Of a stretch of 64,000 nucleotides of DNA, positions 6,689 through 64,000 are shown piece by piece; positions within the stretch are counted from its first letter, which is position 1, and each line of letters begins with the position of its first letter. A program made the translations under genes and the position numbers. The notes beneath the pieces were generated by a model, which was not told the origin of the DNA, ran no database searches, and worked only from the letters and a program-made list of their open reading frames with translations. Source of the DNA: a phage. Location of the stretch: sequence record PZ583741.1; one strand, written 5' to 3'.

Positions 6689-6689
6689 A

Positions 6690-9851: not shown

Positions 9852-10037
9852 ATGAAAGAAGAAAGCACGTACAGCATTGACCAGATGAAGTTATTCAGCG
9901 ATATATGCATGGCATTGTCACAACAGGTTCCAAGCCTGCCTGCTGATATGCGCTCAAATGCCATCATTGATGCGGCAAACATGATTTGCGAGGCATATGC
10001 GATGACTGAAGATGAATATAAGGATTCGAAGAAATGA
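9852..10037 (+). CDS. hypothetical small protein
   Basis: 61 aa ORF starting the plus-strand operon. Confidence 0.35.
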   Translation: MKEESTYSIDQMKLFSDICMALSQQVPSLPADMRSNAIIDAANMICEAYAMTEDEYKDSKK

Positions 10038-10436: not shown

Positions 10437-10670
10437 ATGGCAAAAGTAAAAACATATGAGTTCTGGTTTGTGCAGAACAAAATTCATGCAAGCAAGATAA
10501 TCAAGCGAGCGCACTGGTGGAATAAGTGGCTAATCCTGTCAGGATGCATTGTGCTGGCAAAGTGCAAATTCAAAGCGATTGACATCACAGATGAGGATTC
10601 ACTCAAAATCGCAAAGATTGAGTTTGAAGAAGATGGCTATTACGAAGAAATTATGGGGGTTAGGGTATGA
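10437..10670 (+). CDS. hypothetical small protein
   Basis: 77 aa ORF. Confidence 0.35.
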   Translation: MAKVKTYEFWFVQNKIHASKIIKRAHWWNKWLILSGCIVLAKCKFKAIDITDEDSLKIAKIEFEEDGYYEEIMGVRV

Positions 10671-11068
10671 GTGAAGTTAAAACATACGCAGTGAATTGCA
10701 ATGACGCATGGCTAAACACCGAAGGTGATAACATCTCCGGGTCATACGTTAAGTACAAAGACCATCAGGAAGTGGTTGCCGCTATTGAGGCCAAGTGCGC
10801 GGCGCTAGCAGCGGAGAATGCGGCGCTTAAACAGTCGGAGAAGGAATTTAATAACTTCTGTCGTCAGGAGTACTACGGTTGGGAGGACAACTTCACGGAA
10901 ACCCCAGCCACCGATGATTTTCTGGTTGAAATTGAACGCAAAGCAATCCGCAAGTTCATTAACAGTATTGAACACATTCTTCGCGACAAGTTGTCACCGT
11001 ATGACACAGAAGAGATGCTTGAGGATATGCGTATTTTCCTGGAAGAGCAGAGTGGTGAGCAAAAATGA
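10667..11068 (+). CDS. hypothetical protein
   Basis: 133 aa ORF, start overlaps upstream stop (ATGA). Confidence 0.4.
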   Translation: MSEVKTYAVNCNDAWLNTEGDNISGSYVKYKDHQEVVAAIEAKCAALAAENAALKQSEKEFNNFCRQEYYGWEDNFTETPATDDFLVEIERKAIRKFINSIEHILRDKLSPYDTEEMLEDMRIFLEEQSGEQK

Positions 11069-11367
11069 CAATCACAAAACAACGTGTAGAAGAAATAATA
11101 TCGCGCATTGAAATGTATGGGCATGGTGCCGGGTATACCGCAGAAGAGGTTTATGACCTTGCTATACTGGCGCTGAATTTATCAAATATCGCAAACCTGA
11201 AGCGATACGAACTTGATATGGATGGTTGCGACTCGTGCGGTCAGGATTGTGGCGCTGACATGAGCGAAGACCCTGAAGGCGAATTTGTCATGTTCGACGA
11301 TGTTGTCAAGATGGTTCAGTTCGACACTACCAACCTGCAATTCGAAAGCCTGGCTAAAAGTGAATAG
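11065..11367 (+). CDS. hypothetical protein
   Basis: 100 aa ORF, overlapping start. Confidence 0.4.
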   Translation: MTITKQRVEEIISRIEMYGHGAGYTAEEVYDLAILALNLSNIANLKRYELDMDGCDSCGQDCGADMSEDPEGEFVMFDDVVKMVQFDTTNLQFESLAKSE

Positions 11368-11512
11368 CTACCCGTTCATATTAATTATCAGTGCGCTCTA
11401 TGTGTCGCACGCTTTAGTGGAGGCATACCAATGAACAACCACAAACGACGCCGATACACCACTGGCGCTAAAATCTTCCTTGCTGTTTATGTGCTGGCAC
11501 TTGTAGCAGCTG

Positions 11513-11710
11513 TTGCAGGAGTTGTGCATTATGTTTAACGATATCAGTGACGCAATGCAAAACATGTGGGAACGCTACTGGGACGGTATGATGACGTGTC
11601 ATTACATGATGGTGCAGCTCGGCAATCGCATTGAGGTTGTACCTGACAATGGTGTGCATGACATCAAGTACATGTGCTCTACGAGGGATTATGCTAATGC
11701 AAACAACTAA
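11513..11710 (+). CDS. hypothetical small protein
   Basis: 65 aa ORF. Confidence 0.3.
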   Translation: MQELCIMFNDISDAMQNMWERYWDGMMTCHYMMVQLGNRIEVVPDNGVHDIKYMCSTRDYANANN

Positions 11711-11870
11711 AGCCAAGGTTTGGCAACTCGCCAAGCAGCACGAATTGGACGATTTTATAGCGAAGGTTGCCAAAACATTCCCAGATGCGCTTGAAATCGT
11801 TCATGTGCAGACGCAAACAGAAAATGCATGGTGCTATGCTGGCAAGCGTGGTAATGATAGTGTACAATAA
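11691..11870 (+). CDS. hypothetical small protein
   Basis: ATG at 11691 preceded by gaggga; ORF-track start 11631 is probably too far upstream. Confidence 0.3.
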   Translation: MLMQTTKAKVWQLAKQHELDDFIAKVAKTFPDALEIVHVQTQTENAWCYAGKRGNDSVQ

Positions 11871-11914
11871 ACGCATAACCACCATTGCTTTCACTCATAT
11901 CATCACCCAACCTT

Positions 11915-11942
11915 TGACCCGCCTTGTGCGGGTTCTTTTTTG
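11915..11942 (+). terminator. rho-independent terminator (acccgcc-ttgt-gcgggt plus T-run)
   Basis: Read directly. Confidence 0.55.
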
Positions 11943-12018
11943 TCATTAACAGCATGGCGTAGAATCTGTTACAATATCGAATAACGGGAAAAAAGCGGAA
12001 TATTGATAGGGTTTATAT

Positions 12019-12435
12019 ATGGCTAAAAAGCTATTCAGTAAAGAAAATCAACCACAAAATAAACGTGGGAAAGACAAGCGTAAGTTGCTCGTTGAAGCTC
12101 TTGAGAGAAAGGGGTTTAGTGAGGAAAAGCTCTATGACGCCATCGTTGAGATGGCGATGATTGAGCGTGATACTGCAATGATGAAAGAGCTTATCGTTCG
12201 ATTCAGTCCGTTACCTAAGCCTGTCGCCCCTGTTTTTGAAGTTGATTTCCCTGATGACGGAACTCCGGTAGAGAAGATTGATGCTGTTATTCGTGGCATA
12301 GCTGCTGGTGTTATACCTGTGGACATTGGAAAGACATTTGCGGAGGTTATCAGGACTGGGCTTGATATTGCTGAAGTTACCGAACTCGCCGCGCGCCTTG
12401 AGCGACTGGAGAAATTACTGGCGCAGCAACAGTAA
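12019..12435 (+). CDS. putative terminase small subunit
   Basis: 138 aa, basic N-terminus, coiled-coil C-terminus, immediately upstream of large terminase; positional inference. Confidence 0.4.
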   Translation: MAKKLFSKENQPQNKRGKDKRKLLVEALERKGFSEEKLYDAIVEMAMIERDTAMMKELIVRFSPLPKPVAPVFEVDFPDDGTPVEKIDAVIRGIAAGVIPVDIGKTFAEVIRTGLDIAEVTELAARLERLEKLLAQQQ

Positions 12436-12534
12436 CTGATTTATAATAATTAATGCGGCTAGGGGGCACCCGAAAAGCGACTCATCACCGCCTGCCGCAT
12501 TCACTTCAATGATGCCCTGATGAGGAATCTATAT

Positions 12535-15054
12535 ATGGCACGCAAAAGACTGTCAGCACCAGCAATTGAAAAACTCGAAGAGATTATTGGCGATGGCGTG
12601 ATTGATACGCCTGAATCCGCGGTGTTCGGTGTTGTTAATACAGATAAGCAGATTGTTCGCAAACTAAAAATGACGCAAAGCGGAGTTGATGACGTTAGCG
12701 ACTCTGATATTAACGTTGATCACCTGATACCAGAAAAGCTGGAAAAGCTACTTTACCCCAAGCGAAATAAGATTGTGTTTGGCGGGCGCGGATGCTTAGC
12801 CATCGGCACAATGGTTAGGATGTTTGATGGTAGCCTAAAACGCGTAGAGGATATCGCTGTTGGCGATAAGGTTATGGGTCCAGACAGTAAACCACGAAAT
12901 GTTTTAAGCATCTGCCGTGGGTTTGATGACATGTATACGGTTCATCAAAAATATGCTGAGGACTACACTGTCAACTCAAGTCACATACTGTCATTACGAA
13001 AGATTCCATCTGCTATCAGTGACGAGACAAAAACACCGGATGGTAAAAGAATTTATCGTTATTACCCAAATGACCCTGAAATACTTAATATCGGTGTTTC
13101 AGAATATTTGTCGCGCGCAACTTCCACGAAGTTCCGTCATGTCTTTAAAGGGTGGCGAACAGGATGGGATTTTCAGGAACAAAGCGTTCCAATTGACCCG
13201 TACTTTCTTGGTTTATGGTTAGGTGATGGCTCATCTCGTAGTGTTGAAGTATGCACGCCTGATCCAGAGATAGTTGACTACCTTCACGGTGTGGCAAGCC
13301 AATATGGGATGCAGGTAAAGGTTCGCGACGATGATAGATGCCCTGTCTATGCGATAACTAATGGTCGAGCTGCTGGCATGGGGAAAAACACCAACCCTTT
13401 ACTAACTAAAATGCAGCAGCTTGGGGTGATTAATAATAAACACATACCTGACTGCTATATTAAAAACAGCAGACAGGTAAGACTTCAGATTCTGGCTGGG
13501 CTATTGGATACTGATTCGCATTACCACAAAGAAAAGAAAAGCTATTGTTTTACATCAATAAATAAAGATATAGCCTTCTCTTTGATGGATGTGGCAAGAT
13601 CACTTGGCTTCAAGTCAAGCATAATCAAAAAGACCGATGTCACCTTTGAGTATAAAGGTGAGAAAAGAATATACGAAAAGGATGTGTGGGAGGTGTTCGT
13701 TAGTGGTGAACTTCATACAATCCCATGCCGAGTAAAAAGGAAGATAGCAGAGAAAACCAAGTCAACCCGTGGAAAGATGACTGAGGTGTCATTGTCTTAT
13801 GCCGGGCATGGTGTATACGCTGGATTCACTCTTGATGGCGATCATCTTTTCTTGCTTGCTGATGGCACAGTTACACACAACAGCGGAAAAACAAGAACAG
13901 TAACTACAATACTTACGGAGCGTGCACGCTTTAAGCCTGACAGGATAGCTTGTTTCCGTGAGATTCAGCAGTCTATTGAGGATAGTTCGTATCAGGAACT
14001 GAAAGACGAGATTGACAGGAAGGGCGAGACAAAAGAGTTTCGCGTAATCAACAACGAAATAACACACAAGGTAACGAAAGCAAAGTTCCGCTTTAAAGGT
14101 CTGTATCGCAACCAGACGACCGTTAAAGGCTTTGCTGGCATTACAGTCGCTTGGGTTGAGGAGGCTGAAAACGTTAGCCAGACAAGCTGGGAAATCCTCA
14201 CTCCAACTGTTCGCGCTGATGGCTCTGAGATATGGGTGACATTCAACCCAAATAAGGAGCATGACCCCACATGGAAGACGTGGGTTGAGCCGTTTTATAG
14301 CAAACTGCGCTCAAGTGGCGGTATTTACGAAGACGAAGAAAACCTGATTATTGAATGTAACTATTCAGATAATCCGTGGTTTTGGGATACGCCACTACCC
14401 AGCCAAATGCAACGAATGAAAGAGACAGACTTCGACCGCTATCAATGGGTTTGGGGTGGTCGCTTTAACAAGAGGAATGACGAGCAGGTCTTTGGCGGCA
14501 AATGGCGCATTGATAACTTTGAGGTTAAACCTGAATGGCACGGCCCATACTTCGGGATGGACTTCGGGTTTTCCACTGATCCTACCGCAATGATTGAAGT
14601 TTACATCGAAGAACTACCAGGTGCACGGCGCAACATTTATATTAATCGCGAATATGGCAAGGTTGGCCTTGAGATTACCGATACACCAGCTGCGATGGAG
14701 CAATCATTCCCGATGGCTAAGCGCGCGCGATGGTATGCAGACTGCGCTCGACCGGAAACCATCAGCCACATCAAGCGTTCTGGCTTTGATATTCATCCAT
14801 GCACAAAATGGCCGGGAAGCGTTGAGGATGGCGTAACGTGGCTGCGCGGCTGCGACAGTATCATCATCCATGAGCGATGCAAGGAAATGCAGAATGAAGC
14901 GGCAATGTACAGCTATAAGGTTGATAAGCTGACCGGAAATGTACTCACGGATATTGTTGATGCATATAACCATTACTGGGATGCCGTTCGCTATGCGCTT
15001 AATGACCACATCGTCCAGCGCGGTAGCGGAATGCTAATCCGGCGCAGGAGATAA
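12535..15054 (+). CDS. terminase large subunit, intein-containing precursor
   Basis: Exteins give GGRG|SGKT Walker A, WVEEAE, VTFNPN, GMDFGF..DPTA, ADCARPE, NHYWDAVRYAL; ORF track starts at 12520, ATG at 12535 has a better RBS. Confidence 0.85.
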   Translation: MARKRLSAPAIEKLEEIIGDGVIDTPESAVFGVVNTDKQIVRKLKMTQSGVDDVSDSDINVDHLIPEKLEKLLYPKRNKIVFGGRGCLAIGTMVRMFDGSLKRVEDIAVGDKVMGPDSKPRNVLSICRGFDDMYTVHQKYAEDYTVNSSHILSLRKIPSAISDETKTPDGKRIYRYYPNDPEILNIGVSEYLSRATSTKFRHVFKGWRTGWDFQEQSVPIDPYFLGLWLGDGSSRSVEVCTPDPEIVDYLHGVASQYGMQVKVRDDDRCPVYAITNGRAAGMGKNTNPLLTKMQQLGVINNKHIPDCYIKNSRQVRLQILAGLLDTDSHYHKEKKSYCFTSINKDIAFSLMDVARSLGFKSSIIKKTDVTFEYKGEKRIYEKDVWEVFVSGELHTIPCRVKRKIAEKTKSTRGKMTEVSLSYAGHGVYAGFTLDGDHLFLLADGTVTHNSGKTRTVTTILTERARFKPDRIACFREIQQSIEDSSYQELKDEIDRKGETKEFRVINNEITHKVTKAKFRFKGLYRNQTTVKGFAGITVAWVEEAENVSQTSWEILTPTVRADGSEIWVTFNPNKEHDPTWKTWVEPFYSKLRSSGGIYEDEENLIIECNYSDNPWFWDTPLPSQMQRMKETDFDRYQWVWGGRFNKRNDEQVFGGKWRIDNFEVKPEWHGPYFGMDFGFSTDPTAMIEVYIEELPGARRNIYINREYGKVGLEITDTPAAMEQSFPMAKRARWYADCARPETISHIKRSGFDIHPCTKWPGSVEDGVTWLRGCDSIIIHERCKEMQNEAAMYSYKVDKLTGNVLTDIVDAYNHYWDAVRYALNDHIVQRGSGMLIRRRR
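12793..13881 (+). mobile_element. intein (363 aa) with LAGLIDADG homing endonuclease domain inserted in terminase Walker A
   Basis: Starts with Cys (tgc 12793), ends His-Asn (cac aac 13876-13881), +1 residue Ser; LGLWLGDGS and LAGLLDTDS motifs; flanks reconstitute GGRGSGKT. Confidence 0.8.
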
Positions 15055-15060
15055 AAATAA

Positions 15061-15088
15061 AGCCCTCATCTGAGGGCTACTTTCATTT
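15061..15088. terminator. hairpin agccctca-tc-tgagggct after terminase
   Basis: Read directly; weak U-run. Confidence 0.4.
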
Positions 15089-15235
15089 AATCAATGCTCG
15101 TCGACCAAGTTCAGCAATCCATTCCGCCGCATCCTCTATTTTGTTGAACTCATAAAGATGCTTGCCGTCTTCCATGACATAAAACAGAATGCGACCAAAT
15201 TTATTTTTCTTTGCGCTAAATTTAACATCTTTCAT
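15083..15235 (-). CDS. hypothetical small protein (50 aa)
   Basis: Short minus-strand ORF between terminators; not in ORF track. Confidence 0.2.
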   Translation of the reverse strand: MKDVKFSAKKNKFGRILFYVMEDGKHLYEFNKIEDAAEWIAELGRRALIK

Positions 15236-15387
15236 ATTTTCACTCCTTCCGTTTCATGAGTTCAATCTACATCACAAGCATATCCACGTCAACATTTATT
15301 GTTGTTGATAAATCTGCATCACCACACTTGACCAATCTACACCGAGCGCATAGTATAATCTACATCAGGCTTACCGGAGATATCACT

Positions 15388-15594
15388 ATGCGCAGCTATG
15401 CAGGATTTACACAGGAGGAAAAAGAACAGGTTTATTCACTGGCGCGGGCTGGCGTGCCTGATGAGGTGATTTGCTGTCGGTATGATATCGACGAGGACTT
15501 CCTGCTGCGTGTTATTGATGACGTTTTCGTTAACCTGCAAGAGAAGCGAGGATATAAGGGTATCTGCTGCAAGAATGATTTTTTGAGAGGGTGA
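15388..15594 (+). CDS. hypothetical small protein
   Basis: ATG at 15388 after ggaga; track ORF 15256 trimmed. Confidence 0.35.
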   Translation: MRSYAGFTQEEKEQVYSLARAGVPDEVICCRYDIDEDFLLRVIDDVFVNLQEKRGYKGICCKNDFLRG

Positions 15595-15756
15595 TGTGGT
15601 GATTATTGAAAAAACAAATGAATGCCACAGTCTGTATATAAATACAGAACTAGTCATCAATTTAAGGCAATGTGACGACTGGGTTCAGCTTGACAAACAC
15701 CAAGCCGCGCAACTAATCGAAGTCCTGCAACGCTGGGTTAATGGTGAGGAGATTGA

Positions 15757-15966
15757 ATGATGAGCGTTTATTTTTATTGCGGTCACATTGAGCGACAAGG
15801 AAGCGTAGCGAGCGTTGGTAGTTTCTGCGGATTATCAATTGGACCTGATGCTGTTAGCGCATATGAAGATGTCATGAGAGCGCAGGTGAAGGAAATCCAG
15901 TCAATCACTGAGAGCGGCGCTTTTAATCTTTCTGTTATTTTTGATAAATTCGAAAAGGTGGAGTGA
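15757..15966 (+). CDS. hypothetical small protein
   Basis: 69 aa ORF overlapping next start. Confidence 0.35.
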   Translation: MMSVYFYCGHIERQGSVASVGSFCGLSIGPDAVSAYEDVMRAQVKEIQSITESGAFNLSVIFDKFEKVE

Positions 15967-16442
15967 TGATTGATTGGGTATCTTTATTTGATTATGATGG
16001 AGCGTCTTTGGTGTGGAAGCATGGAAGGGGAGGTGTTTCCGTTGGCAGCATTGCGGGAACGGTTAATGCTGGCGGGTACATTCAGCTCAAAGTTAACGGA
16101 AGATTTTATTATGCCCACAGAATTATATGGGAAATGCATAACGGTCCTATACCGGAAGGTATGGAGATTGACCACATAAATCATAACAAGGCGGACAACA
16201 GGATTGAGAATTTGCGTCTTGTTCGACACAAAACTAACACTAAAAACGCGCCTAAATACAAAAATAACACCAGCGGCGTTACTGGTGTGAGTTGGTATAA
16301 GAGAGATAAAAAATGGCTAGCACAAATAATGGTTGATGGCAATTACATACGTCTTGGTCTTTTTGATAATTTCGAAGCAGCAGTCGACGTGAGAAAGGAA
16401 GCAGAACTAAGGTATGGATTTCACAAGAACCACGGCGCTTGA
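15963..16442 (+). CDS. HNH homing endonuclease with AP2-like domain
   Basis: 159 aa; HRIIWEMHNGPIPEGMEIDHINHNKADNRIENLRLV, near-identical block in B ORF 22049..22561. Confidence 0.75.
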   Translation: MMIDWVSLFDYDGASLVWKHGRGGVSVGSIAGTVNAGGYIQLKVNGRFYYAHRIIWEMHNGPIPEGMEIDHINHNKADNRIENLRLVRHKTNTKNAPKYKNNTSGVTGVSWYKRDKKWLAQIMVDGNYIRLGLFDNFEAAVDVRKEAELRYGFHKNHGA

Positions 16443-16470
16443 TGATATAATGACCCTTGCAGAAATGTGA

Positions 16471-17764
<1,294 letters not shown>

Positions 17765-35342: not shown

Positions 35343-36098
35343 ATGTTAAGTCCAAAGTTTGAAAATCAGTTGCAAAGCCTTTTCCCGGGTGAGATTGTTA
35401 CTCTAATCCAGGTTGACGGAACCTCATTTGGAAGTCTCGTTTATTCGTTCCATAATGAGAACATTTCATACACACCAGAAGAGATTATGCTAGCCCAAAT
35501 GAATGGCGAGCCACTGCCAGAGAAGACAATTACATTCCGCGGCGAAGAGTATGGCCCAAGACCATTTGGTATCTCTGGTATCAATATGACTTCTGACGGC
35601 AAGGCTAACAAGGTTACGTTAACGGTATCAAACGTGGACCAGCGCATTAGCGCATTGATTCGCACATATAACGGACTTGTTAAGGCAAAGGTTACTATCT
35701 GGATCACCACGCGCGACAATATCAATGAAGACGGAAGTATTGCTGATGGGGACTATCGCAGATTTGTTTACTTCATTGAGAGGCCAAAGCAGGTTGATTA
35801 CAAAACGGCATCATTTGAGCTAAGTAGCCCGATGGATATGGATGGCATTTACATCCCAGCGAGACTTGTTCAGTCAGTTTGCTATTGGGCCTCTAGGGGT
35901 TGGTATCGTAGCGGTAATGGTTGCGACTATGCTGGCAATAGATACTTCAATAAGGATGATGAGCCAGTGGCAGACCCTTCATTAGACTTCTGTGCAGGAA
36001 CAGTTAACAGTTGCAAGCTTAGATTTGGTGAGAATAACCAACTTTCATTTGGTGGCTGCGCGGCGGCAAGCCTTCAGGCAAAGGCGAATCAGAGTTAA
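35343..36098 (+). CDS. minor tail protein (lambda L-like position)
   Basis: ATG 35343 (track 35331 is a TTG); C-terminal Cys cluster. Confidence 0.45.
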   Translation: MLSPKFENQLQSLFPGEIVTLIQVDGTSFGSLVYSFHNENISYTPEEIMLAQMNGEPLPEKTITFRGEEYGPRPFGISGINMTSDGKANKVTLTVSNVDQRISALIRTYNGLVKAKVTIWITTRDNINEDGSIADGDYRRFVYFIERPKQVDYKTASFELSSPMDMDGIYIPARLVQSVCYWASRGWYRSGNGCDYAGNRYFNKDDEPVADPSLDFCAGTVNSCKLRFGENNQLSFGGCAAASLQAKANQS

Positions 36099-36116
36099 AT
36101 AGCACTTTTTGCTAAA
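36099..36116 (+). promoter_or_regulatory. B cassette motif, variant (atagcactttttgctaaa)
   Basis: Then ggatggcgTATAGTtacc and cacacaaacgagagg. Confidence 0.5.
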
Positions 36117-36171
36117 GACGAACAGCAAAGGATGGCGTATAGTTACCTCACACAAACGAGAGGATATAAAA

Positions 36172-43339: not shown

Positions 43340-43431
43340 CTCTCTTTGGTTTTGTGATACGAAATTTTCGTAGCGCAAGCGGCACCATTTCCGCCATGCG
43401 CACAAATATACCCAAATATTGCGTCTTGTCT

Positions 43432-43449
43432 TTAGCAAGACGTGCTATT
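43432..43449 (-). promoter_or_regulatory. B cassette motif on minus strand (aatagcacgtcttgctaa)
   Basis: TATATT box downstream on minus strand. Confidence 0.45.
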
Positions 43450-44136: not shown

Positions 44137-45108
44137 ATGACATTTACCGTATACACAAATGATGAGCTAACCAATGAAGCCTATCACGAAGAGCAAGACC
44201 ATATCTCTGGCTCTTCACTTGCTGAGATTCTTGCCACCTCTCCAGCTAAATGGAAGTTTAAGCAGCGCAATAACTCTAGCGCAGCACTTAAGTTTGGCAC
44301 ACTCAGTCACTGCATGATGCTCGAGCGTGAAGTGTTCGATTCAACCTACATGCGAGCAACTGACTTTGACGAAGTGGAAGGATTGATTACAAGCCAAACA
44401 GCCTTATCAGCAGCGCTTAAGAAAGTTGGAGTTTCTGGCACGTCAGGAAAGGGCTATAGCGAGCTCTTAGAGATGATGTACAAGTCTGGTGAGGATTGGC
44501 CTGTTAAATGGTTAATTGATCAGCAGGAGAGCGCTGAGGCGTTAATTAGTGGCAAGGAGCTAGTTACTGCTAAAGATTACGATAAGGTAATCTCAATGCG
44601 TGAGGTTCTGACTAATGTACCGGCATATGATGCGGTGATTAATTCACCTACAGCGCAGAAAGAGCTATCAATCTTTGGTGATATTCTTGGGTGTGGTGTT
44701 AAGGTTCGGCTTGATCACGTGGATGTTGTTGATGGCGTTGTCTATATCCATGACTATAAGACGACCGCAGACGCAAGCCCTCGAGGATTTGGTAAGTCGG
44801 CTTATGACCATGGTTACCTGTGCAAGATGAGCCTTCAGCGTGATTTGTTTGTGAAGGCATTTAGCGAGAAGCGCAAGGTTGTGGTTCGACTCCTGGCGCA
44901 GGAGAAAACTGAACCATACTTACCTATGTGCTACACGCTTACAGATGAGCAACTTCGCATTGGGCGCATTCAGTATCTTGAAGCACTGGCTACATACAAA
45001 CAGTGCAAGGAACTTGATGTGTGGCCTGGTTACAGTAATGGGATTACAGAGCAAGAACTGATGATCCCTGAGTGGGTAAGTAAGCAGTATCAGGAGCTGC
45101 TAAAATAG
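44137..45108 (+). CDS. PD-(D/E)XK family exonuclease
   Basis: 323 aa; N-terminal block matches A ORF 1799..2749; IHDYKT motif. Confidence 0.55.
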   Translation: MTFTVYTNDELTNEAYHEEQDHISGSSLAEILATSPAKWKFKQRNNSSAALKFGTLSHCMMLEREVFDSTYMRATDFDEVEGLITSQTALSAALKKVGVSGTSGKGYSELLEMMYKSGEDWPVKWLIDQQESAEALISGKELVTAKDYDKVISMREVLTNVPAYDAVINSPTAQKELSIFGDILGCGVKVRLDHVDVVDGVVYIHDYKTTADASPRGFGKSAYDHGYLCKMSLQRDLFVKAFSEKRKVVVRLLAQEKTEPYLPMCYTLTDEQLRIGRIQYLEALATYKQCKELDVWPGYSNGITEQELMIPEWVSKQYQELLK

Positions 45109-45122
45109 CACGAATTGCTAAA
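45105..45122 (+). promoter_or_regulatory. B cassette motif ATAGCACGAATTGCTAAA
   Basis: Then ggggtattatcacccc and catcgaaactaaaaac. Confidence 0.5.
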
Positions 45123-45185
45123 GACAAAATTAACTGGTGGGGTATTATCACCCCATCGAAACTAAAAACAGAAGTGAGAGATTAA

Positions 45186-49106: not shown

Positions 49107-49123
49107 ACCTCCCGAAGGAGGTT
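49107..49123 (-). terminator. terminator for minus strand (aacctcc-ttcg-ggaggtt plus T-run)
   Basis: Plus strand shows aaaaaa + aacctcccgaaggaggtt. Confidence 0.65.
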
Positions 49124-50045
49124 AGTCTAGTAATTCGCTTGCTTTGTATATTCGCTTTCTTATGCCTGACTTGAAAAAATTATCATCATTTGGCATTACC
49201 ACATCAAGATTGCGATCGTCAGCAACAGCGAGTAAATCAAAATCGTGGCGAGTACAAGCGACGCGTAACTTGTAGTTTCTAAGCGCATAAGCAACCATTT
49301 CCATGTTGTAACTGGAGTAGCAAACAAGCACGCAGCGGTTGCCAGTAGCAAGATGAACGCGAATACCATCAATCCAATTATCGACCATATAAGCGTACTC
49401 ATCATTCTTAAAGGTACCAATAACAGCAATAGACTGGCGAGTATAATCTTTTGCAGCATAACTAACATCTCCCTCTTCATTGATAAACATTACATTGCAC
49501 ATCTCATCGGACAACCCATCACTATATGCCATAAAACACGGTATTGCGTGTATTAGTTCGCCTGACTTCGTCCTGCCAACATCAAAACCAAACTCGCTGT
49601 AAATACCCTCGTATATACTGAGAGGAGTTGATTCTACTCTTTCCGTCCTTTCCATTATCTCTAAGCATCTTTCGTGGTCAATCTGCGCGCCCATTTTGTA
49701 TGGTGATGTTCTTGAAGCTCTTTTGTTTGCTTTTGATATAACATCTACTGGAACTAGATTCAGCCAATCACCAAGCGTATCTATTGTTTCGCTATAACTC
49801 ATTCCCGAGCATTTCATAACCCAGCCAACACCAGAATCGTTGCCGCACTGGTTACATATTGCTGCGCCATTTCCCTTTTCCTGACCTAACTCATCAGTGA
49901 AGCGAAACCTATCCTTGCCAAAGCAGTGGGGGCACGGACCATGCTTCTTGCTGAGATTCTCCTTTGTCCATCCAAGGTGCGATGAGTAGAATTCGCCCCA
50001 CATTCCACTCATTTTTGCTATCACTTCATTTTTATCATGGTGCAT
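49122..50045 (-). CDS. DNA primase (zinc-ribbon plus TOPRIM-like)
   Basis: 307 aa; CPHCFG...CNQCG; homolog of A 5708..6658. Confidence 0.65.
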   Translation of the reverse strand: MHHDKNEVIAKMSGMWGEFYSSHLGWTKENLSKKHGPCPHCFGKDRFRFTDELGQEKGNGAAICNQCGNDSGVGWVMKCSGMSYSETIDTLGDWLNLVPVDVISKANKRASRTSPYKMGAQIDHERCLEIMERTERVESTPLSIYEGIYSEFGFDVGRTKSGELIHAIPCFMAYSDGLSDEMCNVMFINEEGDVSYAAKDYTRQSIAVIGTFKNDEYAYMVDNWIDGIRVHLATGNRCVLVCYSSYNMEMVAYALRNYKLRVACTRHDFDLLAVADDRNLDVVMPNDDNFFKSGIRKRIYKASELLD

Positions 50046-50104: not shown

Positions 50105-50578
50105 TTACTCTTTAGCTTTTCGTGCTGCTTCGTTGGCTGCCTTAATTTTGCGCCATGAGCGACACTCTGGTTTAGTTGCTAGCTCAGCCTCAGTAACAAC
50201 ACGCAGCATATGACGCTTCTTGCAACGTAGAGTTAGCGGTTTCCCGTTACCGTCGAATTGCAGATCTGGTCGGCAGAATGTAGCGCGAAAACCTTCTCCA
50301 TTTCGCTTATAGTAGTTGTGCGACAACTGAGCGCCGCGCGCAGAAATCATCCCACGCTTAAACCATTCTTCTACAGCCTGAGGTGTCACCTTTAACTGCT
50401 TTGCGATATTTGCCTTTGTGCCGAAGAAATCAAGAACAATCTCCAGTCGCGCACGTAAACCCGCCCTTACCTCATCTTTCAAAACGTAGTAACCTGAAGG
50501 TCGTTTACGTTGCTTCTTATCTTGTGTGCGGACGGTCCCGTTATTGCCGTTAATTGTTCGCTTGTCAACTGCATTCAT
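50105..50578 (-). CDS. putative HTH DNA-binding protein
   Basis: Basic protein with HTH-like segment NIAKQLKVTPQAVEEWFKRG; start at M13 (gagg RBS). Confidence 0.3.
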   Translation of the reverse strand: MNAVDKRTINGNNGTVRTQDKKQRKRPSGYYVLKDEVRAGLRARLEIVLDFFGTKANIAKQLKVTPQAVEEWFKRGMISARGAQLSHNYYKRNGEGFRATFCRPDLQFDGNGKPLTLRCKKRHMLRVVTEAELATKPECRSWRKIKAANEAARKAKE

Positions 50579-50679
50579 TTCATTACCTCGATAGCATTTT
50601 TTGTTAAAAGTCATTCTGATTTGATGGTATTATTGTACTCAATTAAACGCTACAAGACAATTTTTATAGGAATTTAGAT

Positions 50680-57965: not shown

Positions 57966-58330
57966 TAATGTGCGTAGCTTTATATGGATGTTCAGCAACA
58001 TCTGCTCTGACCGGATTAATTGGAAGTAAGCCTGAAGTTACGGCTCAGGCTGGTGCCGAGAACAATAAGGTTGGTGTTGGGTTAACGAACAAGGTTGACT
58101 CCAGTAACTCCAGCGATGCCACAGTTAAGGATTCCAGCGTGGGCTCACTTGATAGTTCTAGCGGGAAAAAGACTGCTGATAATTCGATTAAGGCCTCTAC
58201 AATCACTGCCGAAAAGATTGAGATTACCAATAACGACTCATCAGCGCTTCCGTGGATTGGAACAGGAGCGATGGGTTTGCTGGTTCTGATTCTCCTTTCC
58301 TTAATCTTAAGACGTAAAAAAGCCTCCTAA
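57941..58330 (+). CDS. unimolecular spanin (N-terminal lipoprotein signal, C-terminal TM)
   Basis: 129 aa; lipobox LYGC|S; C-terminal WIGTGAMGLLVLILLSLILRRKK; overlaps endolysin 3' end. Confidence 0.55.
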   Translation: MLKRIAALVMCVALYGCSATSALTGLIGSKPEVTAQAGAENNKVGVGLTNKVDSSNSSDATVKDSSVGSLDSSSGKKTADNSIKASTITAEKIEITNNDSSALPWIGTGAMGLLVLILLSLILRRKKAS

Positions 58331-58340
58331 TGGAGGCTAT
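58321..58340. terminator. bidirectional terminator (agcctcc-taat-ggaggct with A-run and T-run)
   Basis: Read directly; between convergent spanin and 58345 ORF. Confidence 0.65.
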
Positions 58341-58344
58341 ATTT

Positions 58345-58680
58345 TTAGCTAAATAACTCTTCGTCAGTCATTGTCCCTATGTTCATCATCTCTTTTATGT
58401 ACTGGCTTTCATACCCGTTAAGCGCCTCAAAGTTGAAACAAAATGGCCTCTTCAAGCTACCCTTACTAACAAACTCACCGCACTTGCCATCAATGTATCC
58501 GGCACTCAACATCTTCGCGCAGAACTCCTTTGAGGCAGCGCTGCAAAACTCTCTATGTGACAATCCTGCCGCCTTACTGAATCTCTGAGAGTCCTTATGT
58601 TGGTAGATGAATCGCGCCAAATGCTGGCGCGTAAAGTATGAATACGACTCACAGAACTTAAATATATCGAGTATGAACAT
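58345..58680 (-). CDS. hypothetical protein
   Basis: 111 aa ORF. Confidence 0.35.
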   Translation of the reverse strand: MFILDIFKFCESYSYFTRQHLARFIYQHKDSQRFSKAAGLSHREFCSAASKEFCAKMLSAGYIDGKCGEFVSKGSLKRPFCFNFEALNGYESQYIKEMMNIGTMTDEELFS

Positions 58681-58772
58681 ATTCAGCTCCAGATTATGTC
58701 TAATACAAATATAAGCAGTGAGATTAAAATAAGGAACCCCAAAATTACAAGAAGTATTGTTTCAAGCATAAA

Positions 58773-60356
58773 TCACCCCAGCAGTCGCGGATTAATGTAA
58801 ACTTTATCACCAATCAGGCACGTATAGTTTTTCTCATCAAGCATTGGCAGTAAGTGATCTTTAATCTTCGTCATCACTCCAGCCTGAGCCTCGAACGGCT
58901 TAACATTGCGAGCAGCTTCATACAATGAGCGAATACCAACTACGCCCTTACCGTTTTTGCCTTGCTTGATCAGAATATCAATCAGCTTATTCATCTCGGC
59001 ATTGTCGCCAGCGTGACCAGCTGCGTTAGCAGATGACAAATAAGTCTTGCTCAGTTCCTGAAACATAATAACAGCTTCTTGCATCGTATCTAGCTCGATC
59101 TCTCTAGACTTACGCGGACTCCCGCCATTTGGGTTAAACCAGTTACGCACGGTATGAAGAACCGCCGCAATTCGGATAGCCTGCTTGTCGAATTTACCCA
59201 GGGCGCCGCGCAACATTGTGTGTGAATACTTACCGCCGTCAGCAAGGTGAGGTTCCATTTCCTGACGCGCGCGGTTGAGATACTTCATTGCTGAGTTGCT
59301 CACTGTCAACTTAACATCCTGCTCATTCATTATTTCGTGAACAAGTCGGAAGTAATCAGCCTTCAATGCGCCATCAATTGGCTCGTAAGTTGAATCTCCA
59401 TTTTCATCAACGAATACACGTTCGCCAAGGAATGACTTCTCGCGGACCAAAAGGAAGCGCTCAGATACACCGATACCACGCGCACCAGCGTTCATAATAG
59501 CGTTGATTGTCTCATCCTGCGCAATTACGGAGATACAGCCCATGGCAACGAAGCTCATGTTGTTCTCTGCGTTCGCACGTGCGATAGATACGTTACCAGC
59601 ATCCCATGCTTTAAGCACAAGCTCGCTGTTCGTTTTCTTTGAGCCGTCACCATAGGTCATACCAAGCAGTGAGTTTACACTAGTCGCCTCATCAGAGATG
59701 ACAGCAAAGTTGCCCTGACGGTTGTTTATTCTGGCAAGGCCCTCAGGCGTGGTATCGGACACGGGGAAAACGATATCGCATAGCTTCTCGAGCTTTTCCT
59801 CGAGTTCCTCCTTCTCTTCAAATAGAGAAGCCATCTCTGAAGGAGATTTCTCCTGCTTCATCTCTTTGGATAATGCAGAAAGTTTTGCCATTATTTTCTT
59901 GCGCTCACGCTTACGCACCTCATTCAGTCGCTCAGTCTCAGCAATCATTGGAGCAATTGAAAGTGAGTTGATGGCTGATTTACCAGTCGATGGGGGCTGG
60001 CTTGTTACGACGTACAGCGAGGTTGGTTGCTGAGTCCCGTGATATTCAACAGTAAATCGTCCAAGCATGGCAGCAGAAATACACCCCAGAAAGTGCATGT
60101 ATGCGGAAGACTCTGGAAACTGAACAGAACGGGCAATATTGGCTGACAGCTTACCAACAATATCAACATCATTTCCGAGTGAGATTACAGGATACTTGTC
60201 ATTAGCGGCATCAATCTCGACCGGAGACTTCCAGAATGATTGAGACTGGCGATAGCCATTGGCATTAATGGCGACTCGCAGTGGTGGGAGGTTGTCTGCG
60301 GATGCAATTGCCATAACCTGTTCAACAGATAGTTTATCTTCGTTGAAATCAAACAT
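58773..60356 (-). CDS. P-loop NTPase, putative replication protein
   Basis: 527 aa; Walker A SQPPSTGKSA, Walker B-like FAVISDEA; minus-strand cassette upstream; N- and C-termini shared with 63142..63666. Confidence 0.45.
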   Translation of the reverse strand: MFDFNEDKLSVEQVMAIASADNLPPLRVAINANGYRQSQSFWKSPVEIDAANDKYPVISLGNDVDIVGKLSANIARSVQFPESSAYMHFLGCISAAMLGRFTVEYHGTQQPTSLYVVTSQPPSTGKSAINSLSIAPMIAETERLNEVRKRERKKIMAKLSALSKEMKQEKSPSEMASLFEEKEELEEKLEKLCDIVFPVSDTTPEGLARINNRQGNFAVISDEATSVNSLLGMTYGDGSKKTNSELVLKAWDAGNVSIARANAENNMSFVAMGCISVIAQDETINAIMNAGARGIGVSERFLLVREKSFLGERVFVDENGDSTYEPIDGALKADYFRLVHEIMNEQDVKLTVSNSAMKYLNRARQEMEPHLADGGKYSHTMLRGALGKFDKQAIRIAAVLHTVRNWFNPNGGSPRKSREIELDTMQEAVIMFQELSKTYLSSANAAGHAGDNAEMNKLIDILIKQGKNGKGVVGIRSLYEAARNVKPFEAQAGVMTKIKDHLLPMLDEKNYTCLIGDKVYINPRLLG

Positions 60357-60413
60357 TACTTCTCTCCGTGTTGTTTCTGAGCGGCCATTATATCAACGAC
60401 CGCTTATAATTCA

Positions 60414-60431
60414 TTATCAATTTGTGCTATT
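60414..60431 (-). promoter_or_regulatory. B cassette motif on minus strand, variant (aatagcacaaattgataa)
   Basis: TATAAT box, ggagag RBS and P-loop gene ATG follow on minus strand. Confidence 0.45.
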
Positions 60432-60781
60432 TACAGGTACTGGGCCTCAAAATGGTACGTCTGGCAAAGAGTGTAAAATCCAACATCCTCGCTACGGTAG
60501 AGCTGCCAGGCATTACCATCCTCATCGTAAATGTAACCAGCCGATTGACCTAGTCCAGCGTGAAGGTTCACCTGGTAACGTTTCTCTTCTTTAAAGTCTT
60601 TTTTAACTCCTGATTTATGGTTAACCTTCGTGCAGTAAATAGTTTTGGTCTTAATGTATTTGCCGCGCTCTTCCAGGTTAATCCATTTGCCATCTTTCTT
60701 GATTTGTTCTACACCATCTTTAACTCGAGCTTTGTATAATACGTTATCGTTGCTAATGAAGTTTTTAGTAATCGTTGTCAT
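60431..60781 (-). CDS. hypothetical protein
   Basis: 116 aa after minus-strand cassette. Confidence 0.4.
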   Translation of the reverse strand: MTTITKNFISNDNVLYKARVKDGVEQIKKDGKWINLEERGKYIKTKTIYCTKVNHKSGVKKDFKEEKRYQVNLHAGLGQSAGYIYDEDGNAWQLYRSEDVGFYTLCQTYHFEAQYL

Positions 60782-60844
60782 TTTGTTTGCCTTTTTGTGT
60801 TTCGTTTCGATGAGATGAATATACAGGAAAAGCCCCGAAGGGCT

Positions 60845-60862
60845 TTAGCAATTCGTGCTATT
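60845..60862 (-). promoter_or_regulatory. B cassette motif on minus strand (aatagcacgaattgctaa) followed by hairpin
   Basis: Downstream on minus: gcccttcggggctttt hairpin, then catcgaaacgaaac. Confidence 0.5.
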
Positions 60863-61005
60863 TCGTGCTTTTTCTATCGCCTTGAGCATAATTTCATGAC
60901 TCTCTAGCAAGTCCTCGCGAAACCAGTCTCCGCAGGGCCAGCCCTTTCCGCTGTAAGCACTTATGACCTCAAGGTCGAAATAATTTATCTCAGATGGTAA
61001 TAGCA

Positions 61006-61266
61006 TCACTTCACCTCATCAAAAGTTGCAATTCCAGGGATTACTAGCTTTCGCACCCAGCCATTAATGTCAATACAGCTATTAATTGCAATCCATCCAG
61101 AATCGTGCTTGTGCGGTCGCTCAGCGCCATTAATAACCCATTCGTTCGGGATTGTCTTGCCGTTAATTATTAGCGGCTCTGCGTCGTATACAGAGCCTTT
61201 AACGAAAGGCGTTAAGACTTTCTTGTCGGTACTATTGATAACGTTAGTGCAGATTATTTTAGTCAT
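61006..61266 (-). CDS. hypothetical protein
   Basis: 86 aa ORF. Confidence 0.35.
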   Translation of the reverse strand: MTKIICTNVINSTDKKVLTPFVKGSVYDAEPLIINGKTIPNEWVINGAERPHKHDSGWIAINSCIDINGWVRKLVIPGIATFDEVK

Positions 61267-61450
61267 TTACAACCTCGTACTCACCTTTATAAACAGCGAC
61301 CTCTTCATTCACATTGTTGACAATCACTGCTAAACAAAGAGCACCCAAATACTTTACCACTTCGTACTCGCAGCCCAACGTCAGACAATAGTCCTCACAT
61401 GAACGTCCACTGCAATCTAAATCTTCGAATTTAACTAACTTAATTTTCAT
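61259..61450 (-). CDS. hypothetical protein
   Basis: 63 aa ORF. Confidence 0.3.
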   Translation of the reverse strand: MKIKLVKFEDLDCSGRSCEDYCLTLGCEYEVVKYLGALCLAVIVNNVNEEVAVYKGEYEVVND

Positions 61451-61460
61451 ATCTCAATCC

Positions 61461-61640
61461 TCAAATAAATGGTAAGCATTCAGTGCAGCCGAGGCCGTCA
61501 CAACAGAAAAATTCATCCTCTGACTGGAACTGCTTTGCCAGATCAATATCCAACTTTCCGCGCAACACAAGGTCGGTGTAATCCTCGTTAAGCCCAATCA
61601 GTGCGCATTCGTGACGTAACTCATCTTTATTCTTTTTCAT
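61461..61640 (-). CDS. hypothetical small Cys-containing protein (59 aa)
   Basis: ORF read on minus strand, ends FFCCDGLGCTECLPFI; not in track. Confidence 0.25.
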   Translation of the reverse strand: MKKNKDELRHECALIGLNEDYTDLVLRGKLDIDLAKQFQSEDEFFCCDGLGCTECLPFI

Positions 61641-61939
61641 TTCTCATGGCCCTTTAAATTATGGCGCTTATTCAGAACTTCAACCCATTCTTGCGCGTCT
61701 TTCTCTCTCATGAAGAAGCTTAACTTTGGGTGCTTGTGAAAACCTTTAAGTTCAACAATCCAATGACCACCTTCGTAACTATAACTAACTTTCTTCTCTG
61801 TCATTTCGTTACCTTTTGAGTTTTTTATTATCGACATCTCTTCAACGTACTCGCTACAACTCGGGATTTTACTCCCGGCCCGGCATTCTAACAAAAGGAC
61901 CCGCTCGGCGCTTTGGTGGGTGAGGTAACGCTTCCTCAC
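61637..61939 (-). CDS. hypothetical protein (start uncertain)
   Basis: 100 aa track ORF; 5' part overlaps a GC-rich structured stretch, so an internal Met may be the real start. Confidence 0.3.
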   Translation of the reverse strand: MRKRYLTHQSAERVLLLECRAGSKIPSCSEYVEEMSIIKNSKGNEMTEKKVSYSYEGGHWIVELKGFHKHPKLSFFMREKDAQEWVEVLNKRHNLKGHEK

Positions 61940-62662
61940 ATTGCGCGGTAGTATTTACCCTTTTTAGTCTCTTTCGAGAGTGACTCAGAGTCTGCTACCG
62001 TGTCGATGAGATTAAGTATACGCATAGTTAGCCACACTGTCTTTAGCAAAAAGTGCTATTCGTTAGATTTATGGATTGTTGCAGATATTGCAATGATTCA
62101 CATGACTATTGCACATACAGCAATATTGCTTCAGATGCAATGATGTTTTTGATTGTTGCGAAAATTGAAATGAAGTGGAGATTGAGTGAATGAAAGATGG
62201 ATGGACTACCATACAAGTTGATTTTGATCTTGACTGAGCCATTTTCACGCTTACACGTAACCGCTGTAGCGCGATGTAAGCCAACGCCTATCGTTACGCG
62301 AGTTACGCGAAGCTACGCCATGACTTACACTATAAGTGCTTAATATATATATATATCTTCTTTCTATTATTATTATTATTATTAATATTATTGTATGTAA
62401 GTCATGTAACCGGGTGTTCGGCGGTATCTATATGTTTTTTCCTATCAGAATACATTATTTCCATTTTATGCGAGATTTAGCCATTATGGGGCCACCTAGC
62501 TAATTTACCTCGTTACACGCACGACACGAAACTACATTGAGCTATAGCTGGGCTGGTGTGCCATTTCGCGTAACGACCCCCAAAAGTTACCAAAAATTAC
62601 ACTTGACTACATGTGTAAGTCGGGATATGATGGATTCAACTTAAACGAGAGGAGTAATAGAA
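61940..62662. promoter_or_regulatory. AT-rich divergent control region (copy 2) with (TA)n, (ATT)n and 20-bp element cattgagctatagctgggct
   Basis: Element at 62535..62554; (tatt)/(att) run 62361..62390; paralogous to 43440..43938. Confidence 0.5.
62043..62060 (-). promoter_or_regulatory. B cassette motif on minus strand, variant (aatagcactttttgctaa)
   Basis: Reverse complement read directly. Confidence 0.45.
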
Positions 62663-63142
62663 ATGAACGAGAAAGTAACATTGGGACAAGTGATTCGTGA
62701 GATGGTAAAGGCAGCGCTTAAGTCTGAGGACAAGCAGATCAGCGTGACACTTAACAAGATTGAGAGCCTTATTGGTGCTGAGGAGGGTGGCCTACACAAG
62801 CTTAAGAGCTCATATATCTACAATACAACGGCTCGCATGCCAGAGTTGAGGGATGCAGGACTGAAGGCAACTCACCACTATGATGACGATGAGGGTGGCA
62901 GTGAATTTGGAGAAACAACTTTAGCGGGAGAAAGGAAGTTAGTTATCAAGCTAATACCAGGCACGGCAAACATTGGAATCAGGAAAAAGACCAACGACGC
63001 GGTCAAGGATGAGGCAATCACTGAGTTCAAGGCGAAGATTTCTAAGGTGATGCCAGATCTCTCTGAGTATGAGGGTGAAGCGCTTGCAGCCGCCATGAAG
63101 GCCATTAAGGATTACCGTTTAATTATTGAGGAGATTAAGTAA
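62663..63142 (+). CDS. hypothetical protein
   Basis: 159 aa, RBS gagaggag upstream. Confidence 0.4.
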   Translation: MNEKVTLGQVIREMVKAALKSEDKQISVTLNKIESLIGAEEGGLHKLKSSYIYNTTARMPELRDAGLKATHHYDDDEGGSEFGETTLAGERKLVIKLIPGTANIGIRKKTNDAVKDEAITEFKAKISKVMPDLSEYEGEALAAAMKAIKDYRLIIEEIK

Positions 63143-63666
63143 TGTTTGACTTTAACGATGATAAACTGACAGAAGAGCAGGTAATTGAGATATCCAAGCA
63201 AGATGGACTGCCTCCGCTGCGAATTGCAATCAATGCTAACGGTTATCGACAGTCAACTGCGTTTTGGGGCTCGATTGATACATCAGAGGTGTATAGTGGT
63301 GATGAGCTTGGTGTACTGATTAAAATCATCAGGAAAATGGGAGTCAACGGCAAAGGAGTTGTCGGCATCAGGTCTCTATATGAAGGTGCTCGCAAGCTGA
63401 AACCATTTACGGGTCGCGATGGAATGATGCTACTGATTAAGGATAAGCTAATTCCAGAACTCGACAAGATGAATGTTACCTGTCTAATTGGAGATAAGGT
63501 TTACGTCAACCCTTCCTTGACGGATTTAAGCTGGCAGCCTAACTTCAAAACTTACGAAGGTGAGCACCATAGCAGACTACCATACCACTTGCGGTACAGT
63601 GAGGAGGAGGTTGAGAAGGCGATTGAGTTCTACCGGAAAGCTAAATCACTCCTGAATGGTAAATAG
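63142..63666 (+). CDS. truncated paralog of P-loop protein 58773..60356 (lacks the NTPase core)
   Basis: 174 aa; MFDFNDDKLTEEQV...LPPLRIAINANGYRQS and GKGVVGIRSLYE...CLIGDKVYVNP match the N- and C-termini of the 527-aa protein. Confidence 0.45.
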   Translation: MFDFNDDKLTEEQVIEISKQDGLPPLRIAINANGYRQSTAFWGSIDTSEVYSGDELGVLIKIIRKMGVNGKGVVGIRSLYEGARKLKPFTGRDGMMLLIKDKLIPELDKMNVTCLIGDKVYVNPSLTDLSWQPNFKTYEGEHHSRLPYHLRYSEEEVEKAIEFYRKAKSLLNGK

Positions 63667-63680
63667 CACTTTTTGCCTAA
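63663..63680 (+). promoter_or_regulatory. B cassette motif, variant (atagcactttttgcctaa)
   Basis: Then ggatggcataatagcc and catcgaaacgagag. Confidence 0.45.
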
Positions 63681-63742
63681 CGCGGTAATGCCAAGGATGG
63701 CATAATAGCCTCATCGAAACGAGAGATACCAAGGAAAACAAA

Positions 63743-63931
63743 ATGTCTAAGCGCATCACTAAAGAACTTAAAGTGCTGAACAAAGAAAACGTAATCACCA
63801 TCCTGACAATGTTTGGCTACAACGAAGAATCTGCCATTGCAAAGGTTGAATCTGGTTACGATGTTGCGGTACGAAGCATGCCGGAAGCAACCTCAAAAGG
63901 TATCGCCGACTTCCTGGCTACATGTTACTAA
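63743..63931 (+). CDS. hypothetical small protein
   Basis: 62 aa; its last 58 nt are the start of the 127-bp repeat shared with 17652.. Confidence 0.4.
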   Translation: MSKRITKELKVLNKENVITILTMFGYNEESAIAKVESGYDVAVRSMPEATSKGIADFLATCY

Positions 63932-64000
63932 GTTATCTTACAAGGCATCTCGTGGGGTGCCTCAGTAAGACAACCGGAGATAGAGCATGAAAACCAAAAT
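63874..64000. repeat. 127-bp exact copy of 17652..17778 (terminal overlap of circular genome B)
   Basis: Base-by-base identity; period 46,222 bp; repeat ends exactly at the window end. Confidence 0.85.

Follow-up and report, generated by a model that had tools for sequence, protein, structure and literature searches.

A predicted motor-less paralog of a DUF3987 helicase encoded near an origin-like region of a T1-like phage genome

The OBPC (UL8.5) protein of herpes simplex virus 1 (HSV-1) and the E2-TR and E8^E2 proteins of papillomaviruses are short forms of UL9 and E2, respectively, that keep the binding module and compete for its sites. They are made from the parent gene by internal starts or splicing, and their binding and inhibition are proven. 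The P-element KP repressor and the Tn5 inhibitor protein, in which a deletion leaves a binding module without catalysis, are dominant-negative regulators. In phage lambda, O and P form a pair of initiator and helicase loader at an origin with iterons and an AT-rich part, and lambda P, which binds host DnaB, is essential. Here we describe positions 58,773 to 63,666 of a 64,000-nucleotide window of phage DNA (sequence record PZ583741.1), where a 174-residue protein appears to be a copy of the phage's 527-residue DUF3987 helicase that has lost the motor.

The short paralog is like OBPC and E2-TR in keeping peripheral modules without the catalytic part. In contrast to those forms it has a gene of its own, diverged and on the opposite strand, in which both ends of the parent are kept and the middle is lost, and it is known here from sequence. 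The internal or terminal deletions behind the KP repressor and the Tn5 inhibitor also remove catalysis and retain a binding module, but those proteins derive from transposases, not helicases, and have no fixed partner gene. The arrangement recalls lambda O-P in that two adjacent early genes, one for a DUF7174 protein and one for the short paralog, lie by a region of repeats and AT-rich DNA where a helicase must be brought. However, this pair has no sequence or fold relation to O or P, and the short paralog, unlike lambda P, can be dispensed with and resembles a helicase of the phage itself. To our knowledge, and in the literature searched, neither the start of replication in T1-like phages (Drexlerviridae) nor the delivery of DUF3987/superfamily 6 (SF6) helicases to DNA has been established.

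The window joins two contigs. Genome A (1-17652) belongs to a siphophage related to Segz_1 and ASO78B. Genome B (17653-64000) is complete, circularly assembled and ~46.2 kb long; it comes from an Rtp-like member of the Drexlerviridae (T1-like Escherichia coli phage), with vB_Ec-G8, UALMA_PCEc3, DTL and Veterinaerplatzvirus as the closest records. The helicase gene, the short paralog and the non-coding region between their operons all lie entirely within genome B. The parts of the two proteins are as follows.

58773-60356, minus strand: predicted replicative helicase, 527 residues, DUF3987/superfamily 6 (MCM-like AAA+)
60222-60356, minus strand: helicase N-terminal module, residues 1-45, a disordered MFDF peptide and three short helices (11-21, 25-33, 36-41)
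59067-60116, minus strand: DUF3987 ATPase core, residues 81-430, with Walker A PPSTGKS (121-127) and Walker B DE (222-223)
58776-59015, minus strand: helicase C-terminal winged-helix module, residues 448-527
63142-63666, plus strand: predicted motor-less helicase paralog, 174 residues, phrog_7327
63142-63276, plus strand: N module of the short paralog, residues 1-45, homologous to helicase residues 1-45
63292-63519, plus strand: winged helix of the short paralog, residues 51-126, homologous to helicase residues 448-525
63520-63663, plus strand: tail unique to the short paralog, residues 127-174, made up of a disordered linker (134-148) and, behind it, an amphipathic helix (154-171)

Homology identifies the 527-residue protein as the replicative helicase of the phage and an ordinary member of the known DUF3987/SF6 family, and predicts its unwinding activity. 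A sequence-only reading of the window had proposed a profile of DUF3987 type for this protein, and Pfam DUF3987 (PF13148) indeed matches residues 81-430 with 144.2 bits (gathering cut-off 27); the protein also matches phrog_2373 ('DNA helicase'). The Walker A residues Q120 P P S x G K S127 and the Walker B residues D222 and E223 are invariant in 59 helicase homologs. The AlphaFold model is confident (pLDDT 90, pTM 0.87), and both the MCM-like AAA+ fold and the C-terminal winged helix that mark SF6 are present. Two long Glu/Lys-rich helices (126-166 and 172-191) are inserted right behind Walker A, at residues 126-191 (59784-59981). In its passages on DUF3987, the study of Kazlauskas, Krupovic and Venclovas (2016, PMC4889955) assigns the family to SF6, with a C-terminal winged helix, and those of PMC11724360 present AgaPH, a distant member, as a demonstrated ATP-dependent, oligomeric 5'-3' helicase; a stand-alone copy of the N module and winged helix is not mentioned in the DUF3987 passages of either paper. 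The phage protein agrees with these helicases in its Pfam match, Walker motifs, AAA+ fold and winged helix, whereas the primase of genome B is a separate gene of DnaG type, 9 kb off.

The sequence-only reading had proposed that the 527-residue minus-strand and 174-residue plus-strand open reading frames (ORFs) share their two ends, and BLASTP bears this out with two collinear matches and no match between them. The first pairs helicase residues 1-73 with residues 1-69 of the short paralog (53% identity, E 4e-21), and the second pairs helicase residues 448-525 with residues 51-126 (62% identity, E 1e-28). The second match had been described as the last part of both proteins. This holds for the helicase, but the short protein runs on for 48 residues, forming a tail that the helicase lacks. 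In a spliced alignment with relatives, the short paralog equals the helicase minus residues ~46-445, plus the 48-residue C-terminal tail. The invariant Walker A and Walker B residues fall inside the absent part, in agreement with the earlier statement that the whole Walker A/B core is missing. Without the AAA+ ATPase core the short paralog is not a helicase and falls outside the DUF3987/SF6 family, with which it shares the N-terminal module and the winged helix by direct homology.

The two shared segments are merely 71% and 66% identical in DNA, which points to an old duplication. When the helicase is compared with the short family, the consensus residues are identical at 77 of the 117 shared positions. 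The short family keeps the best-conserved helicase motifs, LRVAINANGYRQS..FW and GKGVVG.RSLYE.ARK.KPF.G, and retains the helicase-conserved residues A29, I30, N33, G34, Y35, W42, K71, G72, R84, K85, K87, P88, F89 and G91. These comparisons identify the 174-residue protein as an old, domain-deleted paralog of the helicase end modules that carries one internal deletion, as the sequence-only reading had supposed. The paralogy is thereby confirmed, and its regulatory interpretation is plausible.

Structure prediction, suggested at the outset for the shared termini, gives the same picture. The AlphaFold model of the short paralog (pLDDT 77, pTM 0.64) has a disordered MFDF peptide and helices 11-21, 25-33 and 36-41 in its N part, followed by a winged helix made of helix 54-69, strand 73-75, helices 76-83 and 95-109, and a hairpin at 113-122. 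Element boundaries agree between the helicase and short models in both shared modules.

The terminal similarity could also have reflected a short domain common to many unrelated proteins. A search with the short-family profile through 1.84 billion representative proteins gave 48 hits. Almost all of them are short-family proteins, their fragments or helicases of the same clade; the exceptions are three long, apparently unrelated proteins that match in multiple stretches (e.g., P0271). So few hits among so many proteins indicate that the shared ends are not a widespread domain. The BFVD library of viral structures likewise returns the same family only. The gene family is already catalogued as phrog_7327 (E 2.8e-80, residues 1-174 against profile positions 1-179), listed with function unknown, and the catalogue gives neither a function nor a link to the helicase. 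The short paralog has no match in Pfam, NCBIfam or PADLOC, or in the PDB by sequence; 60 members of the short family compared with Pfam at E up to 5 gave noise alone (e.g., PgpA), and PDB sequence searches with the helicase, the short paralog and the DUF7174 protein returned nothing. P0271 itself is a eukaryote-like protein of 633 residues, in which five stretches weakly match residues 9-38 of the short paralog (63166-63255; E 1.4e-7). The matched motif, MTAEEALAAAEAEGLPLIRSA..SGYKHV, precedes each of its AP2-like repeats, and the likeness may be due to chance or to a shared small helix-loop motif.

In a neighbor-joining tree (132 columns, no bootstrap), the short proteins form a deep group of their own rather than pairing, genome by genome, with the helicases. 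Gene conversion between the two copies in the recent past was considered and is unsupported, given that the tree keeps the short proteins as an old group of their own; the phiEB49-type short copy alone shares two lineage-specific residues with its own helicase. In phage DTL, the match between short protein and helicase seemed to run beyond the helicase stop, and this was rejected as a chance alignment to a downstream ORF of 111 residues. The same seven bases, AAGTAAT, stand before the ATG (followed by TTTGA) of both the helicase gene (60357-60363) and the short gene (63135-63141), so that the start context may have been copied in the duplication as well. In front of the helicase gene, the TAA no longer terminates an ORF.

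The short family comprises >120 clusters at 90% identity, with lengths of 170-187 residues. Ratios of non-synonymous to synonymous substitution (dN/dS) were determined for each module from five genomes of comparable synonymous divergence (dS 0.5-1). For the short gene, each part compared (N module, linker plus helix 1, core of the winged helix, tail) lies at 0.19-0.28; its tail, at 0.22-0.28, is under purifying selection as well. The helicase values are 0.01-0.03 overall, 0.006-0.06 in the shared modules (0.06 in the N module) and 0.016 in the core, so that non-synonymous constraint on the short gene is ~10-20 times weaker than on the helicase at equal dS. By these measures the short gene is under purifying selection, and hence a real functional gene. 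That it is instead a decaying, functionless remnant of a duplicated helicase gene would fit its much weaker constraint and the in-frame stops, frameshifts or deletions found in several relatives. We nevertheless regard a remnant as highly improbable, as the pattern of selection argues against it: dN/dS stays near 0.2 in all modules at dS of 0.5-1 and beyond. Moreover, the length is held within its narrow range in all of these clusters, the copy is old by its divergence from the helicase yet intact, and the start context and the coupling to DUF7174 are preserved in distant lineages.

Both genes occur in related genomes, the helicase in ~800 phage records and a full-length short copy in 113, compared with 144 for DUF7174 and 130 for the conserved non-coding block described below. 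DUF7174, the block and the short gene are thus found in similar numbers of records, and in the same Rtp/Jk06-like groups, whereas most Drexlerviridae have the same helicase without the cassette of DUF7174 and short gene. Within the groups that carry the cassette, the short gene has been lost more than once. Phage vB_Ec-G8 lacks codons 1-143, and its last 31 codons are 100% identical to those of genome B but out of frame. In that phage (7603-8263; window 62258-63570), a diverged DUF7174 allele (35% identity) replaces DUF7174 and short codons 1-143, making it a natural knock-out with a recombination end inside the short gene. CEB_EC3a has a stop at codon 37, and IME542 has several frameshifts in the gene. 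Phage DTL has a stop at codon 141 (GAG to TAG), and 43 near-identical DSM 12242 isolates have one at codon 140 (GGT to TGA). These two stops are independent and lie in the disordered linker (~63559-63564); they remove the tail helix alone, and the codons downstream are still in frame and conserved. They may mark a selected tail-less form, read-through that yields two isoforms, or a recent loss.

Such sporadic loss and replacement in close relatives is typical of accessory genes for host interaction, and raises the idea of a decoy or sponge: made early and in abundance, the short protein would mimic the exposed end modules of the helicase and soak up a host factor or immune sensor that recognizes them, and so protect the helicase or capture a host protein. 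Its position in a variable early region, its fast evolution relative to the helicase at equal dS and the invariant disordered MFDF peptide at its N-terminus, which resembles a short linear binding motif, would all be in keeping with that role. A decoy is harder to square with the uniform dN/dS near 0.2, which gives no hint of positive selection in any pair compared, or with the fixed linkage to DUF7174, and the linkage to the origin-like region would go unexplained. PADLOC and the other libraries searched hold no match, and we know of no defense system reported to sense DUF3987 helicases. Overall, we consider a decoy quite unlikely.

The short gene is the second in a rightward early string, headed by DUF7174.

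62663-63142, plus strand: DUF7174 protein, 159 residues, first gene of the rightward operon (Pfam DUF7174, E 5e-48)
62603-62631, plus strand: predicted sigma-70-like promoter, TTGACT-17-TATGAT, with 10/12 matches (a consensus match only), preceding the operon of DUF7174 and the short gene

The DUF7174 stop codon and the start codon of the short gene overlap in TAATG, and GAGGAG stands 8 nt upstream of this start. DUF7174 lies directly upstream of the short gene at all loci, very distant members included, and the start context and TAATG overlap are preserved in distant lineages. The idea that DUF7174 is a further fragment of the helicase was rejected, with hhalign probabilities of <1% against both the helicase and the short families. 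This constant, translationally coupled pairing, next to the origin-like repeat block and AT tract, suggests an adaptor in the manner of lambda O-P, in which DUF7174 would be an origin-binding initiator and the short paralog a partner that, through its helicase-like end modules, docks onto or opens the helicase ring, delivering the helicase to the adjacent origin. The conserved tail helix that is the short protein's own could bind such a partner, and DUF7174, block and short gene keep company across the same phage groups. Against this, the phages with a disrupted short gene (G8, CEB_EC3a and IME542) retain DUF7174 and still form plaques, a dispensability that argues against an essential loader of the lambda P or DnaC type. 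The many Drexlerviridae that carry the helicase without the cassette indicate that it can be loaded without it, and DUF7174 has no recognizable match to a DNA-binding family in scans of Pfam and other libraries. An adaptor of this kind is therefore possible and, in our estimate, somewhat unlikely.

The sequence-only reading placed the two genes on either side of an AT-rich control region. Divergent operons do surround a non-coding region, but neither gene abuts it: six leftward ORFs (60431-61939) separate it from the helicase gene, and DUF7174 (62663-63142) separates it from the short gene.

60431-61939, minus strand: six small leftward ORFs (116, 54, 86, 63, 59 and 100 residues), upstream of the helicase gene on the same strand
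61940-62662: non-coding region between the divergent operons, 723 bp, without ORF support, 38.3% GC against 44.0% for the genome
62036-62200: conserved non-coding repeat block, with TTGCA boxes at 62079, 62088, 62109, 62126, 62135 and 62156
62330-62400: (TA)n/(TTA)n tract, 71 nt, 13% GC

The AT-richness is pronounced in the 71-nt tract and modest overall. The region does possess a conserved anatomy of the kind expected for an origin or a control region, consisting of the repeat block and the AT tract. In addition to the TTGCA boxes, the block holds (A)TTGCAATGAT-like units and two GATTGTTGC units, and it adjoins a predicted leftward promoter. It is 80-96% identical in 130 phage records, a conservation above that of the neighboring early genes. 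A tract of 8-15% GC is found 289-302 bp from the start of the block in 9/9 compared genomes, despite differing sequence; in genome B this tract may be a DNA-unwinding element or bent DNA. Judged from the sequence, the arrangement could be an iteron-plus-unwinding-element origin and could equally be a promoter with an operator region. GC skew tracks the direction of transcription and is uninformative on where replication starts, and Rfam returned no RNA family at 58000-64000.

The operator-like repeats suggest a further possibility, namely that the short protein is a transcription factor that binds them to time the divergent early operons and takes no direct part in replication. Its winged-helix fold and the placement of the block against a predicted leftward promoter, with the short gene's own promoter in the same region, speak for this. 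The retained N module and the near-identical conserved motifs, however, favor a ligand shared with the helicase over a new DNA specificity. Helix 3 and the wing are poor in basic residues, and the genome already has a Cro-like regulator at 50105-50614. A purely transcriptional role is thus about as improbable, to our minds, as a decoy.

The explanation that we prefer, tentatively and at somewhat less than an even chance, gives the short protein a dispensable role in modulating helicase recruitment, where it would act most likely as a dominant-negative competitor and possibly as a bridging adaptor. The protein has lost helicase residues ~46-445, that is, the entire motor; what is left is the N module, a short linker and the winged helix, to which a 48-residue tail ending in an amphipathic helix has been added. 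Such a protein should be incapable of binding ATP, of joining the ring through AAA+ contacts and of unwinding DNA. Presumably made early from the sigma-70-type promoter and translationally coupled to DUF7174, it would engage the same ligand or ligands as the helicase end modules (repeat-block DNA, DUF7174 or another replisome partner) and thereby modulate recruitment of the helicase at the neighboring region. As both near-invariant helicase modules and their most conserved residues are kept, the simplest reading is that the short protein binds what those modules bind, and the proximity of its gene to the origin-like region makes an accessory role in modulating the start of replication plausible. 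The homology, architecture, selection pattern, gene context and dispensability are shown by the results above; that a ligand is shared, which way the effect goes and that the non-coding region is used as an origin are what we infer.

Several observations weigh against competition for a shared ligand. The helicase end modules are near invariant (dN/dS 0.006-0.06) while those of the short copy drift at ~0.2, a gap that would be unexpected if exactly the same ligand held both. The short gene is disrupted or deleted in the plaque-forming phages vB_Ec-G8, CEB_EC3a and IME542, and so is dispensable for laboratory growth. By sequence, helix 3 of the winged helix and its wing contain few basic residues, so that canonical DNA recognition is not evident. 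Across the whole window, ATTGCAATGAT-like sites occur at the number expected by chance, with no enrichment, and the case for the repeat block therefore rests on conservation rather than on motif enrichment; as said, the candidate region could equally serve as a mere promoter and operator. Finally, the literature on DUF3987, DUF7174, Drexlerviridae early genes and phage Rtp does not mention the paralog or its relationship to the helicase. That the short protein is a new helicase-handling factor assembled from peripheral modules of the helicase itself, whether a ring-docking adaptor that works with DUF7174 to mark the origin and recruit or gate the helicase, or a decoy that shields the helicase modules from a host sensor, we consider unlikely.

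The helicase gene is the penultimate one in the leftward string of small ORFs, and with the six ORFs upstream of it presumably forms one leftward early operon. Four of the six occur in all eight compared relatives, the 59-residue ORF in seven, and the 63- and 100-residue ORFs only in G8. They include phrog_2684 and phrog_4448, both of unknown function. A motif of ~20 nt, CTTTAGCAA-N4-GTGCTATT, is present in five copies in genome B, four found by pattern search (0 expected by chance) and the fifth by eye.

36098-36120, minus strand: CTTTAGCAA-N4-GTGCTATT motif
43427-43449, plus strand: the same motif
45104-45126, minus strand: the same motif
~60841-60863, plus strand: the same motif
62038-62060, plus strand: the same motif

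The copy at 62038 adjoins the predicted leftward promoter, and the motif is repeated in distant relatives too. An operator is one possibility, an element linked to promoters or terminators another. The linear GenBank records KY619305 (ESCO41), NC_019718 (Rogue1) and MF630922 (IMM-001) start or end inside the repeat block, at 62079-62124, so that three independent record ends lie within ~45 nt of each other. The ESCO41 end is a simple cut (..GGATTG / TTGCAG..) and lacks a terminal repeat. Such ends could follow from a convention of the authors, from assemblies that broke at the repeats, or from a true end of the DNA.

Elsewhere, genome B also encodes an SNF2-type helicase, VRR-NUC, Erf and a RecE-like exonuclease, together with the primase and the Cro-like protein.

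49122-50045: DnaG-type primase with zinc ribbon, 9 kb from the helicase gene, neither fused nor adjacent to it
50105-50614: Cro-like regulator of genome B

No DNA polymerase was found among the scanned ORFs of genome B or in the annotation of its close relative G8. The first base of genome B, 17653, falls inside a small ORF, and the genome closes with ~126 bases (63875-64000) that are the same as those it opens with, as expected for a circular assembly with k-mer overlap. In genome A, a protein of 530 residues (7091-8683, minus strand) had been put forward as an analog of the helicase. Support for this is weak: BLASTP detects no similarity to the helicase, the DUF3987 match is sub-threshold (E 0.023) and there is no canonical Walker A. 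The protein matches phrog_3022 'DNA primase' (E 2e-11) and would be at best a remote relative of the genome B helicase. No short copy was seen in the part of genome A that lies in the window.

T1-like phages are common contaminants in laboratories and fermentations, and are candidates for phage therapy. In the phage studied here, one 5-kb stretch holds a compact set of parts: an origin-like region, a cassette of DUF7174 and a motor-less paralog, and the helicase. The natural knock-outs indicate that the paralog can be deleted, which makes genetics feasible. If loss of the paralog had no effect on replication, it would be an ordinary accessory early gene. Were the adaptor or the decoy to prove true, the mechanism would have no described precedent among phage replicative helicases. 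Should the paralog compete with or bridge the helicase end modules, it would reveal the ligand of those near-invariant modules and would provide a bacterial-virus example of a replication protein minus its engine, joining the regulators of herpes- and papillomaviruses.

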